Origin: an uncultured virus (IMG/VR IMGVR_UViG_3300042992_002627)
Taxonomy: Duplodnaviria > Heunggongvirae > Uroviricota > Caudoviricetes
IMG/VR virus record: IMGVR_UViG_3300042992_002627
DNA length: 20,000 nt
Strand: one strand, 5' to 3'
In this document: positions 1-7,879 of the stretch, one piece after another
Layout: each line of letters opens with the position of its first letter
How positions within the stretch are numbered: position 1 is the first letter of the stretch
The notes under the pieces: generated by a model
The model's input: only the letters and a program-made list of their open reading frames with translations
Databases searched by the model: none
What the model was told of the DNA's origin: nothing
Made by a program: the position numbers and the translations under genes

Positions 1-2
1 TT

Positions 3-239
3 TTAATTTTTGCAAAGCAAGGGATTCAAGGATTTACCACTGATGATGGTGATATTGTTGAACCTAAAACAAAAGAGGAAGTGCTAGAAGATATAGAATT
101 GATTGATGATTTGTTGTCAATTATGAAATCAAAAATGCTCTTAAATAAGAAAAAAGGGTTAAAAGCCGTAATAGATGGACGATTAGCGTTAGCAGTTGCC
201 CCCGATTCAGTTAGAATAGGTGGTACGAATCATTTTTAA
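3..239 (+). CDS. Partial hypothetical protein (5'-truncated by the window edge); gene of cassette-like unit A
   Basis: Hand-translated open frame LIFAKQGIQGFTTDDGDIVEPK...SVRIGGTNHF* ending at TAA 237-239, 10 nt before the AAC of the first site core (250-252). Not in the ORF track. Confidence 0.65.
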   Translation, partial: LIFAKQGIQGFTTDDGDIVEPKTKEEVLEDIELIDDLLSIMKSKMLLNKKKGLKAVIDGRLALAVAPDSVRIGGTNHF

Positions 240-243
240 AATG

Positions 244-280
244 TTTGCCAACGGTTCTCGGCTATATTTAGGCTGGGATT
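244..280. repeat. attC-like site 1, left arm only (degenerate or chimeric)
   Basis: TTTGCCAAC-GGTTCT-CGGCTATATTTAGGCTGGGATT follows a stop codon, as at sites 2 and 3. It is followed by the loop motif AACTTTAAATTAAAACAAAATG shared with site 3. No complementary right arm found. Confidence 0.55.
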
Positions 281-309
281 ATGAAAACGAAACTTTAAAT
301 TAAAACAAA

Positions 310-639
310 ATGAAAGTAGAAATTACAAAAATTATGCAAAGTACCGAAATACTAAACGAAATTAAAAATCAATTAGAACAATTAGAGCATAAAGGCTATG
401 ATAAAAATAGTTTTAAAAGCGGTTACCTTTTAGGATATGCCAAAGCGTTGCAATTGCAACAACCTGATGTTATAAAATCGGTTTGCGGTTCGTTGCCGAT
501 TTCAAAGGTGGTTTTCTTTGAGTTGAAAAAAGGGAAATACCTTGCAAGTAATGGGGTTGAAGTAACAACGGAATTTATACTAAAAAACGAACACGCTATA
601 TTTCACGATAATGGTTATGTGATTGTCGAAAGGCAATGA
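310..639 (+). CDS. Hypothetical protein, probably composite (cassette-like unit B)
   Basis: 109-aa ORF with an A-rich leader. It reads through a right-arm-like sequence (LQQPDVIKS, compare LPQTAVSKS in unit D), with GTT cores at 469 and 481 as in-frame Val codons. Confidence 0.6.
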   Translation: MKVEITKIMQSTEILNEIKNQLEQLEHKGYDKNSFKSGYLLGYAKALQLQQPDVIKSVCGSLPISKVVFFELKKGKYLASNGVEVTTEFILKNEHAIFHDNGYVIVERQ

Positions 640-771
640 CCGCTAACGTTGAGCATATACGAAGGCAGGGCTTTTAAATACCAAAGCTCGGTTACTTCCG
701 AAAGCTCAATAGAAATACAAAAGTTGAAAGTTTGCACGTCTGCCCTGCTTTTGTATATGCATTGTTGGCAG
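640..771. repeat. attC-like recombination hairpin (site 2)
   Basis: GCTAAC (642-647), GTTGA, then arm GCATATACGAAGGCAGGGC (653-671), 70-nt loop, arm GCCCTGCTTTTGTATATGC (742-760), ATT, GTTGGC (764-769). 17/19 Watson-Crick pairs plus 2 G.T pairs on the + strand. Confidence 0.8.
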
Positions 772-807
772 TAGTGCTTTTTATTTACAAACAAAAATTA
801 AACAAAT

Positions 808-1227
808 ATGAAAATAGTAAAAATATTATTAGACGATGGAACAAGTAGAGAAGTAGGAGAAATTAAACCTTTATCTCACTTTGAAGAAAAATACCCTGAA
901 AATAATAAATGGTATTGGCAAAGGTGTTACGAAAGACAATTCAATAATTTTGAAGATGATATTATTGAATTTCTAAATGAAAGTAATGTTGAAGAATACG
1001 CAAAAGACCACTTAAATTTAGTTGAAGAAGACGATGTGGAAGAAAAAGATATTTCTGATTTTACTGATGCTGAAATTTTAGAAGAAATGAAAGATAGAAA
1101 ATTAAATAAAGGAGGGAATATAATTACTTCTAGTTTTATTGAAAGATTTGAAAACATTGTAAAAGCAGAAAACATTATTTTATTAGACAATTTACTTTCT
1201 GAATTAGAAACTAAACTCAATCTTTAG
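808..1227 (+). CDS. Acidic hypothetical protein (cassette-like unit C)
   Basis: 139-aa, Glu/Asp-rich ORF with an A-rich leader, flanked by inverted repeats at 764-777 and 1239-1252. Confidence 0.75.
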   Translation: MKIVKILLDDGTSREVGEIKPLSHFEEKYPENNKWYWQRCYERQFNNFEDDIIEFLNESNVEEYAKDHLNLVEEDDVEEKDISDFTDAEILEEMKDRKLNKGGNIITSSFIERFENIVKAENIILLDNLLSELETKLNL

Positions 1228-1245
1228 CGACTCCAACGGCATTAC

Positions 1246-1382
1246 TGCCAACGTTCCGCAGCTTGTGGTCAGTTGCGGATTTAAGCACCGAGCCACAAAA
1301 AAATAAACAATAACTTTAAATTTAAAAACAATGAATAAAAATAATTCCAAAGACCCGCAATTGCCACAAACTGCTGTTAGCA
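1246..1382. repeat. attC-like recombination hairpin (site 3), overlapping the start of the YopX gene
   Basis: GCCAAC (1247-1252), GTTCC, then arm GCAGCTTGTGGTCAGTTGCGG (1258-1278), 76-nt loop, arm CCGCAATTGCCACAAACTGC (1355-1374), T, GTTAGC (1376-1381). One bulged T, one G.T and one C.A mismatch. Confidence 0.8.
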
Positions 1383-1771
1383 AATCGGCTTTAAAATTTG
1401 AATACGGATTTAATTCTGTGAATGGAATTGTAAAAAAGAGGTACTATTTAAGCGAAATACCGTTTATGCACGATAAATGCGATGTTTGGCAAATCTTACC
1501 AGTTGTTTATGTTAGGCAATTTACTGGATTTACAGACAAAAAAGAAGTTGAAATTTATCAAGGCGATATTTGTAAATACCATAAAAATACAAGTAAATGG
1601 TTAGTATCATATCATTTTGAAGTAAGGTTTAGAAATGGTGCTTTTTATGCTTATTGGGAACGTGAAATGATGGGAAAATTAGAGCAACATTGGGATTTAC
1701 TTTCTCAAAAAGATATGCGAAATATTAGAGTGGTTTCAGATATTTTTCAATCAGCGCAAACTACGTCATAA
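1331..1771 (+). CDS. YopX-family phage protein (cassette-like unit D)
   Basis: Motif RQFTGFTDKKEVEIYQGDI...FEVRFRNGAF...IRVVSDIFQ matches the YopX pattern (QxTGLxDKNGxEIYEGDI...EVIGNIYE). Confidence 0.8.
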   Translation: MNKNNSKDPQLPQTAVSKSALKFEYGFNSVNGIVKKRYYLSEIPFMHDKCDVWQILPVVYVRQFTGFTDKKEVEIYQGDICKYHKNTSKWLVSYHFEVRFRNGAFYAYWEREMMGKLEQHWDLLSQKDMRNIRVVSDIFQSAQTTS

Positions 1772-1836
1772 GCTGTTTGCTAACTACTATATGTAAAAAC
1801 CATTTATAAACCTTAACAAAATAAACACTACACGCC
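1770..1836. other. Candidate attI-like primary recombination site
   Basis: TTTGCTAAC core (AAC at 1782-1784) is not followed by a hairpin arm and lies 52 nt upstream of the integrase ATG. On the minus strand it reads ...TATAGTAG|TTAGCAAAC, pointing away from the integrase like attI. Confidence 0.55.
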
Positions 1837-2640
1837 ATGAACATCGGAAAGTACCTCGAAATGTATTCCGACGATTTAAAGTTAAAAAACTATTCGTCAA
1901 ACACAATTGAAAATTACAAATCACAAGTGGGATTATTTTTAAAACACTTTGATAAAGTAGCAACCAAGCCATCTGAGATATCAGAAAAACAAATAAAAGA
2001 ATGGTTGCTGATGGCCAACTCAATTAACGGCAGAAAACACAGAATATCTGCCGTGAAATTGTTTTACAAACTAACAGGAAAACAGCCTTTGAAGTTCCGT
2101 CACATTGAATATCCGCGGTCCGAAAAGAAGTTACCACAAATAATTGACAAAACCTATCTATTGGAATCAATCAATAAAATACAAAACAAAAAACACAAAG
2201 CCATCATTGCTTTGGCATACTCAACCGGAATGCGAGTTTCCGAAGTATGTAATTTGTTGATTGCCGATATCGACAGCAAACGAATGATTATTACCATCCG
2301 ACAATCAAAAGGGAAAAAAGACCGCATTGTGGCATTGTCATCAAAAATACTTGAAATACTTCGCGAGTACTTCAAAGAATACAAGCCAAAAACATTTTTA
2401 TTCAACGGTCAATTTGGTGATCAGTATTCACACACGAGCTGCAACCAAATAGTAAAACAATATTTAGGAAAAGAATTTCACTTTCATCAGCTCCGGCACT
2501 CAAATGCGACAGCACTTTTAGAAGCGGGAACCGATTTGCGAATCATACAAAAACACCTGGGCCACGCGTCTAGTAAAACAACAGAAATCTACACCCACGT
2601 CAGCACCAATTTATTACAATCAATGGCATTACCAATTTAA
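1837..2640 (+). CDS. Tyrosine recombinase, integron-integrase-like / XerD-like with N-terminal SAM-like domain
   Basis: N-terminal LKLKNYSSNTIENY. Catalytic motifs: YSTGMRVSEV (R), QSKGKKDR (K), HQLRHS (HxxR), LGH, TEIYTHV (Y). 267 aa. Confidence 0.93.
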   Translation: MNIGKYLEMYSDDLKLKNYSSNTIENYKSQVGLFLKHFDKVATKPSEISEKQIKEWLLMANSINGRKHRISAVKLFYKLTGKQPLKFRHIEYPRSEKKLPQIIDKTYLLESINKIQNKKHKAIIALAYSTGMRVSEVCNLLIADIDSKRMIITIRQSKGKKDRIVALSSKILEILREYFKEYKPKTFLFNGQFGDQYSHTSCNQIVKQYLGKEFHFHQLRHSNATALLEAGTDLRIIQKHLGHASSKTTEIYTHVSTNLLQSMALPI

Positions 2641-2650
2641 AAACTCAAAG

Positions 2651-2884
2651 ATGAAAATCTTCTTCACCTCCTTTTTTCAAATCGGCTTAGTAGCAATCAA
2701 TACCTACATGATCACGCAATTAATATGGCTCGGAATCTTTATAGTTTCATTTTTAATATCGCTATTGTGGTGTTTCAATGTGTCAAAAATATCCGTATCA
2801 ACCAGGGCAGCCAAATTAATCTACGCAACCGGTGCAGGAACCGGAGCTGTAACCGGACTTTTAATCTTAAAACTATTTATTTAA
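2651..2884 (+). CDS. Small membrane protein
   Basis: 77 aa with about three hydrophobic segments, starting 10 nt after the integrase stop. Confidence 0.7.
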   Translation: MKIFFTSFFQIGLVAINTYMITQLIWLGIFIVSFLISLLWCFNVSKISVSTRAAKLIYATGAGTGAVTGLLILKLFI

Positions 2885-2898
2885 CTAAAAATAAAGTC

Positions 2899-3021
2899 AT
2901 GCCAGAAACTGAAAAAGACAACTTGATCAAAAATCTTTACAAGTGTATCGAAGAACAAAAAGCGACAATAGAAATGCTTTACAAAGAAATAGATTTATTA
3001 AAAAAACCGACTAAAAAATGA
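2899..3021 (+). CDS. Small coiled-coil hypothetical protein (40 aa)
   Basis: MPETEKDNLIKNLYKCIEEQKATIEMLYKEIDLLKKPTKK. ATG 2899 follows an A-rich leader and is a better start than 2725, which would overlap the upstream gene. Confidence 0.5.
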   Translation: MPETEKDNLIKNLYKCIEEQKATIEMLYKEIDLLKKPTKK

Positions 3022-3972: not shown

Positions 3973-5688
3973 ATGCAACCAGCCCAATCCCAACTCGAAT
4001 CAATCCCTTTTCAATATGCAGCCGCCGTTCGTTCCGGTGAAATTACTGTTGGAAAAAAAATAAAACTTGCTGTCGAGCGGTTTTATCAATGGATAGAAAC
4101 CGCTGAAGCCGATGGTTATCACCTCGATCATGCAACTGGCATGTTTGCAGTTACGTTCTTTGAAAACTTCCTGAACCATACCGAAGGAAAAATGGCGGGA
4201 AAACCGTTTGTGTTGGCACCATTTCAGCAATTTACCATTTACAACGTGTTCGGGTGGAAAGATGCCACCGGCAAACGCCGAATCAAAACCATTTACGACA
4301 AACGAGCCAAGAAAAACGGAAAAACGGCTGAAATGGCAGGTGTGGCATTATATTGCATGTCGTTTGATGAAGAAATCAAAGCTCAGGTGTTTATTGGGGC
4401 CACAAAAGAAGAACAGGCACGCCTTTGTTGGAATGCGGCCAAAGATTTCATTGATTCCTTTGTGGCAAACACTCGTTTAAAGCAATTGGGCTTTCGGACC
4501 ATGCAAAACAAGGTGATTTTCGAACCTACCAACAGTTTTCTTCGTCCGTTGGGTGGCGATAGTAAAACCCAGGATGGAATTAACAGCCATTTATCGATAA
4601 TTGATGAATATCACGCTCATGCAACCGATGGCGTGAAAGAAAACCTTGAATCATCAGCAGTTCAACGCTTGCAACCTTTAACTTGGCACATCACAACAGC
4701 CGGAACTAACATTGCATCGGTGTGTAAAAATTATGAAGATTCGGTTATTGAAGTGTTGGAAGGCCGAAAAAAAGACGACCGCCTTTGGATTATGATCCAT
4801 GATTTAGATGAAGATGACGATTGGAACGATGAAAGTAAATGGATAAAAGCCAATCCATTATTAAACCAAGGACTTTCAATCGACAATATTCGCGATGAAT
4901 ACCTTAAATGTGTCAATCAACCTTCTAAAATTCCGAATTTCAAAACCAAACATCTAAACATGTGGGTCGATGCTCCAAAAATTTGGATTCCAACCGAAAT
5001 ATGGCAAAAAAATAAAATTTCCGAAATACCGTTATCTAAGTTCCAAAAACATGGAAGCTATGCAGCTCTCGATTTGTCAACCACTACAGATTTAACAGCA
5101 TTTGCTATACTTTCCGAACCCGATGAACACGAAAAGCGATATTTAAAAGTATTACTGTTTTGTCCTGAAAAAACAATCGAAAGACGAAGCAAAGAAGACC
5201 GTGTTCCTTACAAATATTGGGCAGATGCAGGTTTTATCATTGCAACACCCGGTGATGTTGTAGATCATGCCGTTGTAGAAGATAGAATTCGCATTGAATA
5301 CCACAAACATGCAGTAAAACGCATCGAAATAGATCGCTATTTGGCAACAAATATCACATCAAATTTACAAGAAGAAGGTTTTGAAGTGGCCTATTTTACA
5401 CAAACAATTACAAATTATTCGTTTCCAACCAAAGAATTTGAACGCCTTGTTTACTTAAATAAAATAATTCACGACGGTAATCCCGTTTTAGAATGGATGC
5501 TTTCCGGGTGTGTGGTGATTTCCGACACAAACGAAAACATCCGAATATCAAAATCACGTTCACACGCAGGAGGTAAGAGAATCGATGGAATAATAGCTTC
5601 AATCATGGCATTAGGCGGTTCGTTATCACCAAAAGAAGAAAAATCAAAATACGAAAAACCAATGGATGAATCCGAAATCTATATATAA
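3973..5688 (+). CDS. terL: Terminase large subunit (Terminase_1-like)
   Basis: Adenine-binding LAPFQQF, Walker A AKKNGKT, Walker B SIIDEYH, coupling motif ITTAG, RNase H-like ALDLS, and C-terminal RIDGIIA. Confidence 0.96.
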   Translation: MQPAQSQLESIPFQYAAAVRSGEITVGKKIKLAVERFYQWIETAEADGYHLDHATGMFAVTFFENFLNHTEGKMAGKPFVLAPFQQFTIYNVFGWKDATGKRRIKTIYDKRAKKNGKTAEMAGVALYCMSFDEEIKAQVFIGATKEEQARLCWNAAKDFIDSFVANTRLKQLGFRTMQNKVIFEPTNSFLRPLGGDSKTQDGINSHLSIIDEYHAHATDGVKENLESSAVQRLQPLTWHITTAGTNIASVCKNYEDSVIEVLEGRKKDDRLWIMIHDLDEDDDWNDESKWIKANPLLNQGLSIDNIRDEYLKCVNQPSKIPNFKTKHLNMWVDAPKIWIPTEIWQKNKISEIPLSKFQKHGSYAALDLSTTTDLTAFAILSEPDEHEKRYLKVLLFCPEKTIERRSKEDRVPYKYWADAGFIIATPGDVVDHAVVEDRIRIEYHKHAVKRIEIDRYLATNITSNLQEEGFEVAYFTQTITNYSFPTKEFERLVYLNKIIHDGNPVLEWMLSGCVVISDTNENIRISKSRSHAGGKRIDGIIASIMALGGSLSPKEEKSKYEKPMDESEIYI

Positions 5689-6652: not shown

Positions 6653-7879
6653 ATGGGCATTTTTAAAAATATCTTTGCACTGCCTGAAATCCGTAATACT
6701 GTAGCCACTTTAAAAGTGCCTTATACAAGTTCATTCGGATTGTTTGGTGGCATGGCTACCGAAGCTACTTTGGCAAACAGCAAATCAGCTTTTACAATAT
6801 CAGCATTTTACAATGCAGTAGATCAGATTTCAAACGATATTGCAAAACTCCCCAAACACATCTACAAAAAAGAAGGTAAAAACCGTTTTGTCAACACAAA
6901 TCACCCGGCAAATTACCTTATTTCTTCGGCTCCAAACGATCTGATGACTTCCTTCGATTTTTGGAAAATCATTACTATTTCTACTATTATAAAAGGAAAC
7001 GGATATGCCGAAATCATTCGTAACGAAGTAACCGGAATTGAAGAAGCGTTTATTTTTAGAGATTCCGATGATGTAAAAGTATATGCAGGCGAAAACTTTA
7101 TGTTTTACAAATACAAAGGTAGCACAATCGAATCGTCAAACATGTTGCATTTTAAAGGACTTTCCTTTGATGGTGTTGTGGGTGTTGGAATCATAACCTT
7201 TGCGGCCCAGCAATTAGGCATCATGCTCGATGGCAAAAAATACCAGGGCGACATTTATAAAGATCGTGGTTTGGGTTATGGTGTTATAGAAACAGATTTG
7301 GCGGTTGCGGCACCTAATAAAAAAATGATTGAAGATGGTTTTACTAAAAAACTAGCGGCTGGCAATAAATTTAATGTACCTATGTTAGATGAAGGATTTA
7401 AGTATAAATCTATTTCTGTAACACCGCAGGAAGCCGAATTTTTAGCATCCGATAAAAATGCAGTGGTCGAAGTATGTCGTTGGTTAAACATAGCACCACA
7501 CAAATTAAAACACCTGGATAATGCAACTTTCAGCAACATCCAACACCAATCAATCGAACATGTTCAGGATTCTTTGTTGCCGTGGATCACTCGCGATGAA
7601 CAGGAATTAAACCGCAAATTATTTACGGTTGTGCAGCGTGAAACCTTATACACAAAATTTAACGAAAAATTTCTTTTACGTGGCGACCTCGAAGCACGTA
7701 AAAACTTTTATACAGCCGGAATCTATTCAGGCTTTTTAACACGTAACGAAGTGCGAAGCCTGGAAGATATGGATCCTATTGATGGATTAGATGAACCATT
7801 ACAACCAGTTAATATGCAAACACTCGAAATGGTCGAAAACCTAACAAAACAAAGTGCAAATGAAAACAGTAGTAACTAA
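6653..7879 (+). CDS. Portal protein, HK97 family
   Basis: AVDQISNDIAKLP, GNGYAEI, MLHFKGLSFDGVVG, NIAPHKL, TFSNIQHQ, LTRNEVRSLEDMDPIDGLD. 408 aa. Confidence 0.96.
   Translation: MGIFKNIFALPEIRNTVATLKVPYTSSFGLFGGMATEATLANSKSAFTISAFYNAVDQISNDIAKLPKHIYKKEGKNRFVNTNHPANYLISSAPNDLMTSFDFWKIITISTIIKGNGYAEIIRNEVTGIEEAFIFRDSDDVKVYAGENFMFYKYKGSTIESSNMLHFKGLSFDGVVGVGIITFAAQQLGIMLDGKKYQGDIYKDRGLGYGVIETDLAVAAPNKKMIEDGFTKKLAAGNKFNVPMLDEGFKYKSISVTPQEAEFLASDKNAVVEVCRWLNIAPHKLKHLDNATFSNIQHQSIEHVQDSLLPWITRDEQELNRKLFTVVQRETLYTKFNEKFLLRGDLEARKNFYTAGIYSGFLTRNEVRSLEDMDPIDGLDEPLQPVNMQTLEMVENLTKQSANENSSN

Follow-up and report, generated by a model that had tools for sequence, protein, structure and literature searches.

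The uncultured tailed-phage record IMGVR_UViG_3300042992_002627 carries, at positions 253–1836 of the 20,000-nucleotide stretch of DNA that we analyzed (the window), what we read as a phage-borne, integron-like gene cassette array that uses folded sites on the top, coding-sense strand; we put the probability of this reading at roughly 60%. Units with small genes alternate here with hairpin elements of a single family, and the array stops directly before the leader of a gene for a small Xer-type tyrosine recombinase. In integrons, an IntI integrase excises attC cassettes as circles and inserts them at an attI site. In the phage array, a tyrosine recombinase would cut at the AAC of a hairpin's 5′ arm, on the coding-sense strand in its folded form, and the cut site would be exchanged with another such site or with a conserved one that immediately precedes the recombinase gene. 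In this way, whole cassettes—each a hairpin element plus the unit downstream of it—could be excised, inserted, and reordered, with new cassettes entering at the conserved recombinase leader. The most economical account of the observations is an integron-like system with reversed polarity, in which the coding strand folds and the hairpin precedes its gene; from them we infer single-stranded folding in vivo and circular intermediates. The array and its immediate flanks are made up as follows.

238..252, + strand: end of the gene that precedes the array; same end type as the units (...GCCAAC), resembling the other unit ends, with the first junction at 252|253
253..468, + strand: long atypical first inter-unit element, containing the start of the open reading frame (ORF) 310–639
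469..647, + strand: unit B; junction GTTA at 469–472 by homology (earlier start 481), end at 632–647
648..763, + strand: hairpin element 2, 116 nt; inner stem 653–671 / 742–760, 17/19 complementary
764..1252, + strand: unit C; start arm 764–777, ORF 808–1227 (139 residues, no known family), end arm 1239–1252
1253..1375, + strand: hairpin element 3, 123 nt; 5′ arm from 1256, 3′ arm to 1375, duplex energy −19.8
1376..1784, + strand: unit D; start arm 1376–1391, YopX-domain ORF 1331–1771, end arm 1770–1784
1253..1784, + strand: cassette missing from a natural variant (hairpin element 3 plus unit D), as seen in a contig of metagenome run X7
1785..1836, + strand: conserved recombinase leader, a candidate docking (attI-like) site; homology of 33 related loci starts just before it, at 1778–1781, and four contigs begin at the TAAC there
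1837..2640, + strand: small Xer-type tyrosine recombinase, 267 residues, assigned by protein models and structure comparison

Do the two ends of a unit belong together? A first-pass annotation of the window had proposed that the start of each unit is the reverse complement of its own end, outside the hairpin cores, and scoring of the coordinates bears this out for units C and D. The ends of unit C (764–777 against 1239–1252) pair at 13 of 14 positions, the exception being a G·T wobble, and all six variable positions (positions 5–10) form Watson–Crick pairs. Those of unit D (1376–1391 against 1770–1784) form nine consecutive Watson–Crick pairs, a one-base bulge, and six more pairs including one G·T; scored without gaps, five of its six variable positions are Watson–Crick. 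Unit B, said to follow the same pattern, is weaker than C and D: five of the six variable positions pair between 481–497 and 632–647, with an internal loop, but its start at 481 is doubtful, because homology with the hairpin upstream of unit D places the junction at 469–472 and contigs diverge right after 472. Runs X2 and X13 have loose contig ends after 472, and such ends also follow 464 in every one of the four runs. Pairing between the flanks of a single hairpin, by contrast, is poor (four and three of the six variable positions), as the annotation had also stated.

A single pair of complementary ends carries little weight. Inverted repeats of 14 nt with at least 13 matches and a spacing of 100–1,000 nt occur at three distinct places in 3 kb (six overlapping counts), and shuffled sequence yielded a mean of 1.07 counts, with 2 of 60 shuffles reaching six; one 13/14 pair is thus near chance and not significant alone. 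The significance of the pairing comes from its bracket context—of the 13 GCYAAC motifs in the window, 8 fall within the first 2,019 nt, arranged as GTTRGC ... GCYAAC brackets—and from a comparative test of cognate ends. The comparison set for this and the following analyses comprised 82 related loci (80 viral contigs found via the recombinase protein), searched together with the window using a sequence profile built on the junction together with the 5′ arm. For each unit between two detected elements, the 16 nt that follow the GTT junction were compared with the 16 nt that precede the next AAC junction; each distinct pair entered the count a single time, and the locus of phage filifjonk9-1, a near-duplicate of that of phage mumin6-1, was left out.

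Cognate ends stand far apart from other combinations in this test. Watson–Crick pairing at all six variable positions was found in 18 of 37 cognate pairs and in 16 of the 25 whose unit is 800 nt or shorter, against 9 of 1,324 non-cognate pairs and none of the 71 pairs of flanks around one hairpin; none of 20,000 permutations reached the observed cognate mean. The outcome named beforehand as refuting the claim, cognate ends no more complementary than non-cognate ones, is therefore not what the loci show. The cognate pairs that fail are mostly long intervals, which probably contain an undetected element between their two ends. Among the 23 well-paired units (at least five of six positions Watson–Crick), position 11 is a G·T pair in 21, and the variable positions hold only Watson–Crick pairs and a few true mismatches, without any G·T. 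The outer stem that emerges is 14–15 nt long: 10 Watson–Crick pairs, of which the middle six are cassette specific, a near-invariant G·T at position 11, and three to four further pairs. Complementarity can run longer, as in Polaribacter phage P12002L (~37300–38120, minus strand), where the ends of the gp53 unit are complementary over ~30 nt, including an A/T-rich run. We also noted that the same arm type brackets units whose ORF bodies have no nucleotide similarity (loci L004, ~601–900; L055, 1858–2270; L005, 619; and L036, up to 3100) and whose common sequence is only the first 40–50 nt after the junction; arm types may be reused around different cargo.

Because a unit's start matches its own end, the full site—unit end, hairpin, and unit start—exists only in a self-closed cassette. 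Closing cassettes in silico at AAC, by joining each unit's own end to the preceding hairpin, gave the predicted gain: the DNA folding energy fell in 25 of 27 cassettes, to a mean of −24.9 kcal/mol against −17.8 for the linear sites (a difference of −7.1), while random foreign ends gave −17.9. In the window, the site of hairpin element 2 folds at −30.9 kcal/mol with unit C's own end against −20.9 for the linear hybrid, and the second such comparison gives −25.4 against −17.8. This test is independent of how elements were selected, because the outer flanks were not used in choosing them. The first-pass annotation went further and held that the full stem re-forms only on circularization. The main points of this are supported, in that the outer stem fits the closed cassette and marks real mobility, but long-range cis pairing on one strand of the linear array would satisfy the complementarity equally.

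The hairpins themselves form a coherent family with a fixed orientation. All 85 profile matches in the window and the related loci lie on the + strand, that of the recombinase gene; across the 80 recombinase loci, 69 lie upstream of that gene and none downstream. The GTT partner of each junction mostly lies 76–123 nt downstream, and a ~20-bp stem forms between the two. Seventy-eight of the 85 elements were retained, the others being dropped for a duplex energy above −12 or a length above 200. A consensus fold of 56 elements (108–124 nt) has 24 pairs, 17 of them with compensatory changes. Its box is a 5-bp pairing of TAACG with TGTTA that includes an invariant G·T, and only the outermost pair varies (UA in 49 of 56); beyond the box come a 4-nt bulge on the 5′ side, a ~19-bp stem with a second invariant G·T, and a loop of 60–70 nt that contains the translation start region of the next gene. 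By its pairing, this fold has the imperfect palindrome of attC sites (R″–L″...L′–R′), with conserved AAC and GTT. By computed stability, the top strand outperforms the bottom strand in 58 of 71 elements, and it is on the top strand that the invariant G·T pairs occur. A search of Rfam returned no matching family, its sole result being a chance-level hairpin (E 0.44). In line with the annotation, which took the sites as evidence of mobility rather than as terminators, positions 1–3000 of the window hold no terminator-like site on the + strand. Nor is there an excess of sigma-70-like promoters there (12 against 12.1 expected, in a scan that does not cover Bacteroidota promoters).

Hairpins and genes seem to be linked in translation as well. 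In 27 of 72 elements, including the window's 1331–1391, a reading frame that begins at an ATG in the loop crosses the 3′ arm and the GTT junction and continues in the unit; GTT itself is a codon in 18 of the 27. Cassette genes that lack a start of their own thus seem to obtain a start codon and a leader of 15–25 residues from the hairpin. In hairpin element 3, the loop carries the ATG at 1331 and the 15-codon leader of the YopX ORF; this element is 78% identical to an intergenic element of the Flavobacterium phages mumin and filifjonk.

Natural variants break where the proposed crossover would lie. In a 996-nt contig from run X7, position 1249 is joined to 1782, so that 532 nt are missing, with three ambiguous letters (AAC) at the joint and at least 255 letters on the shorter side; exactly 1253–1784 is therefore absent. 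Other contigs diverge after 472 and 1377. Homology with the window starts at 1778–1781 in 33 loci and at 1763–1770 in five more, with all upstream sequence different; this start is the last AAC of the array, 52 nt before the recombinase start codon in the window. A copy of unit D at another locus (L084) is 91% identical (97% near its start), and its homology stops exactly at 1784, again at AAC; beyond it stands another hairpin element in place of the recombinase, and left of the GTT junction identity falls to the family level. In 12 pairs of hairpin elements that are 78–94% identical, the sequence upstream of AAC is unrelated in all 12, and downstream homology continues in three. The earlier placement of the crossover at AAC is thus matched by the variants. 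As for the mobile unit, loss of a block at AAC agrees with what had been claimed, but the missing block is a hairpin element plus its downstream unit, and breakpoints occur on the GTT side too. Two further sets of ends were set aside: a run X2 contig whose joint from 648 to 1781 would drop both later cassettes has 30 letters on one side and possibly unknown letters between and was not counted, and loose ends at 796 and 828 were rejected as junctions, being part of a 33-nt start region common to other genes.

Cultured phages provide a series of array states. The Polaribacter phages Freya_1, 2, 5, and 10 have flanks that are 100% and 99.3–99.7% identical, and between these flanks lie nested arrays, which adjoin the recombinase leader directly and whose ends are four successive YAAC junctions; in Freya_8, the block between two of those junctions is absent. 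Up to AAC, the sequence of the retained end is that of the left copy. These arrays likewise have 118-nt hairpins and cognate unit ends, beside a recombinase 34% identical to that of the window. Nested arrays at the leader junction fit integron-type insertion of cassettes at attI. The Freya genomes span 44.0–48.9 kb with one integrase (Bartlau et al. 2021, PMC8776804); the main text of that paper uses none of the terms cassette, insertion, indel, and "variable region."

What enzyme would act on these sites? The small Xer-type recombinase beside the array is the most likely candidate. Its gene is co-directional with the array and downstream of it, separated by the leader 1785–1836, and the most variable junction across loci lies 52–57 nt ahead of the start codon. 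Among curated models, archaeal XerA fits the enzyme best (184 bits, cut-off 220), followed by XerC (162, cut-off 335) and XerD (158, cut-off 330), and the nearest solved chains are the XerC-like 4a8e and XerA 5hxy; by these sequence models, the enzyme is Xer-like and not a member of a curated Xer family. Models of integron integrases also score below their thresholds (TIGR02249, 134 bits in two pieces, cut-off 265; NF011946, 83 bits, cut-off 435). Against the integron integrase IntI4 (2a3v), residues 12–180 align to 11–182 and 212–257 to 262–307, which sets 31 residues opposite 79.

A role for this enzyme other than phage integration is indicated by a 293-kb Flavobacterium contig. There, recombinase and array lie ~11 kb inside a prophage, with host genes (PNPase, an RpoD-type sigma factor, and a TonB receptor) beyond, phage replication genes and the array directly upstream of the small recombinase, and a separate 407-residue tyrosine recombinase ~29 kb downstream, probably at the prophage's far end. 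Because it is internal in the prophage and a separate integrase lies ~29 kb away, the small recombinase is not the lysogeny integrase in at least this case, and the idea that the recombinase junction is the phage attachment site was rejected on the same grounds. One Flavobacterium genome bin carries two copies of the small recombinase gene, on separate contigs, with 74–75% DNA identity to the window; homology begins at window position 1780/1781 in both, and one copy lies 135–190 nt from its contig end.

Several observations weigh against the integron-like reading. Of the recombinase loci with at least 1,500 nt of upstream sequence, only 32 of 53 have at least one profile match. At least six elements occur in the virulent Flavobacterium phages mumin6-1 and filifjonk9-1, whose genomes encode no PF00589 tyrosine recombinase. 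These two phages are 99.94% identical over 5,263 nt and then diverge 3 nt after AAC (5247–5250), by replacement with different methyltransferase cassettes; arrays and cassette replacement without a recombinase mean that the enzyme may act in trans or not be needed. Among closely related hairpins, homology also ends at the GTT side in several pairs, as it does at the loose ends 472 and 1377, so one crossover point does not explain everything. The phage recombinase lacks the IntI-specific insertion, being ~48 residues shorter at the extra segment of IntI4. Among the assembled metagenome contigs, no circular cassette or circle junction was seen. Finally, G·T pairs on the sense strand suit RNA structure as well as they suit single-stranded DNA.

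The alternative that survives best keeps the cassettes mobile and changes the enzyme: they would be moved in trans, by a host Xer protein or a co-resident element, and the adjacent recombinase would have another role. The arrays of mumin6-1 and filifjonk9-1, with replacement at the AAC|GTT junction and no tyrosine recombinase, are what it would lead one to expect. P12002L also fits; it has related sites, and one of its predicted attC sites was reported to be recombined by IntI1 in Escherichia coli, according to the sections of Qi et al. 2023 (PMC9892861) that we consulted. We nevertheless consider action in trans unlikely, given that all 69 profile matches at recombinase loci lie upstream of the recombinase gene and on its strand, that the junction which varies most sits 52–57 nt before this gene's start codon, and that in the prophage the small recombinase is not the integrase at the end.

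A rather improbable alternative is that the hairpins are RNA structures of a polycistronic early transcript, in which a long-range stem closes each cistron, the hairpins serve processing or translation control, and cassette-sized indels arise through replication slippage at short AAC repeats, across the bases of the hairpins. The better folding of the sense strand, its invariant G·T pairs, the start regions and read-through ATGs in the loops, and the fact that a linear array can satisfy all stems in cis would each follow from it. The composition of the outer stem argues otherwise, since well-paired cognate units without G·T at the variable positions would be unusual for a selected RNA stem, and Rfam holds no match. 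Slippage would also have to account for insertion as well as deletion, because dozens of phages have different cassettes at the same junction.

Could the elements instead resemble the PeSL regulatory cassettes of T4-type phages, whose genes are shuffled by homologous recombination between repeated elements? The hairpins are indeed a repeated family, 70–94% alike, in an early and plastic region. In the parts of Arbiol et al. 2010 (PMC2839356) that we consulted, PeSLs are likewise repeated intergenic stem-loops in plastic early regions, and their exchanges, by which genes are gained or lost, are reported to yield mini-circles. However, a PeSL combines a strong sigma-70-like early promoter with a terminator stem-loop and recombines by homology, and the array has neither signal (12 promoter-like matches against 12.1 expected, and no + strand terminator). 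Its breakpoints fall exactly at AAC even against the recombinase leader, which has no homology with the hairpin, and the retained end in the Freya phages keeps the left copy's version up to AAC. Homologous recombination does not explain the cassette-specific covariation of unit ends. We therefore regard this origin as very unlikely. Least probable is that each unit is a small transposon-like insertion, as 14–15 bp inverted repeats bracketing each unit might suggest: the repeats differ among units and covary, the window has no transposase, no target duplication extends beyond the shared AAC, and the block lost in nature includes a hairpin element.

Among known systems, integrons are close to the phage array. 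Both systems are co-oriented arrays of mostly one-gene cassettes, separated by imperfect palindromes that combine an AAC ... GTT box with a second stem and an unpaired spacer. Cassettes of both kinds begin with a sequence that pairs with the inverse box at their own end, which in integrons is the footprint of crossover at G|TT. In both, a tyrosine recombinase gene flanks the junction that varies most, and close relatives have nested arrays. The two systems also differ. The phage enzyme is Xer-like, below the integron-integrase cut-offs and without the extra segment of IntI4. The cognate box measures 14–15 bp here against 7 in integrons, as the first-pass annotation had remarked of the R box. 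The coding-sense strand folds better here, whereas integrons use the bottom strand, and the site precedes its gene on the 5′ side and provides the start region. The phage recombinase is co-directional with the array and downstream of it, whereas intI is divergent, with attI between. A further relative in mechanism is the CTX phage of Vibrio, where an Xer-type enzyme acts on a hairpin of one phage DNA strand and the whole phage integrates at the chromosomal dif site. The two share an Xer-type enzyme that acts, or in our case would act, on a folded single strand, but in the array single genes are exchanged within the phage genome.

How much of this has been described before? In the sections of Qi et al. 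2023 (PMC9892861) that we consulted, clusters of attC sites that lack an integrase (CALINs) are reported in 17 phages, including two sites in Polaribacter phage P12002L, with one site recombined with attI1 under IntI1, and phage attC sites are treated as parts of integrons picked up by phages. P12002L carries sites related to the present family beside methyltransferase genes, with the same pairing of unit ends; these may coincide with its two predicted attC sites. Those sections give no account of the family, of a cassette-specific outer stem, of a dedicated Xer-type recombinase, or of array polymorphism. Our literature search, with most subscription journals outside its reach, found no published description of the family, the outer stem, the Xer-type recombinase, or the Freya array series.

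The remainder of the window identifies its carrier as part of a tailed phage or prophage of Flavobacterium type by gene content, with genes for the large terminase (3973–5688), a portal protein (6653–7879), a prohead protease, and an HK97-type capsid; the metagenome runs containing this stretch are from lake water. Upstream of these, the small co-oriented ORFs 310–639, 808–1227, and 1331–1771 (YopX domain) precede the recombinase gene (1837–2640). PHROGs and Pfam assign no function to the cargo ORFs except YopX, and the unit C ORF has no relative among the viral contigs. The atypical element 253–468 has no clear inner stem and was missed by the hairpin profile; over its final 48 nt it is homologous (77%, in the same frame) to the part of element 1253–1375 that comprises the 3′ arm and the leader. 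Within the ORF 310–639 region, at 322–535, summed contig depth is 6–10 times that of neighboring phage sequence in three runs; given this depth and the contigs diverging after 464 and 472, the N-terminal part of this ORF seems to be common to many genomes and joined to different C-terminal units. A 17-nt inverted repeat (1623–1639 / 1799–1815, 16/17 complementary) links the interior of unit D with the recombinase leader and may be due to chance.

The common view of integrons is that they are bacterial devices and require a specialized integrase. If the integron-like reading is true, capture of cassettes through folded sites would work without the IntI-specific domain, through a plain Xer-type enzyme in a phage-native analogue. 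We advance only tentatively the broader proposal that Bacteroidota phages own a second kind of integron, with a minimal Xer-type recombinase, folded coding-strand sites, a cassette-specific address stem of ~10 bp, and exchange points at both AAC and GTT; two exchange points would then allow swaps both of whole cassettes and of frame-preserving combinations of leader and body. The cassette-specific outer stem has no counterpart in classical attC sites and is directly testable, and collections already contain cultured Polaribacter and Flavobacterium phages that differ in array state. For the phages themselves, such a system would provide a concrete mechanism for the known plasticity of their early regions and would explain how accessory genes—methyltransferases and YopX-type genes among them—move between flavobacterial phages.

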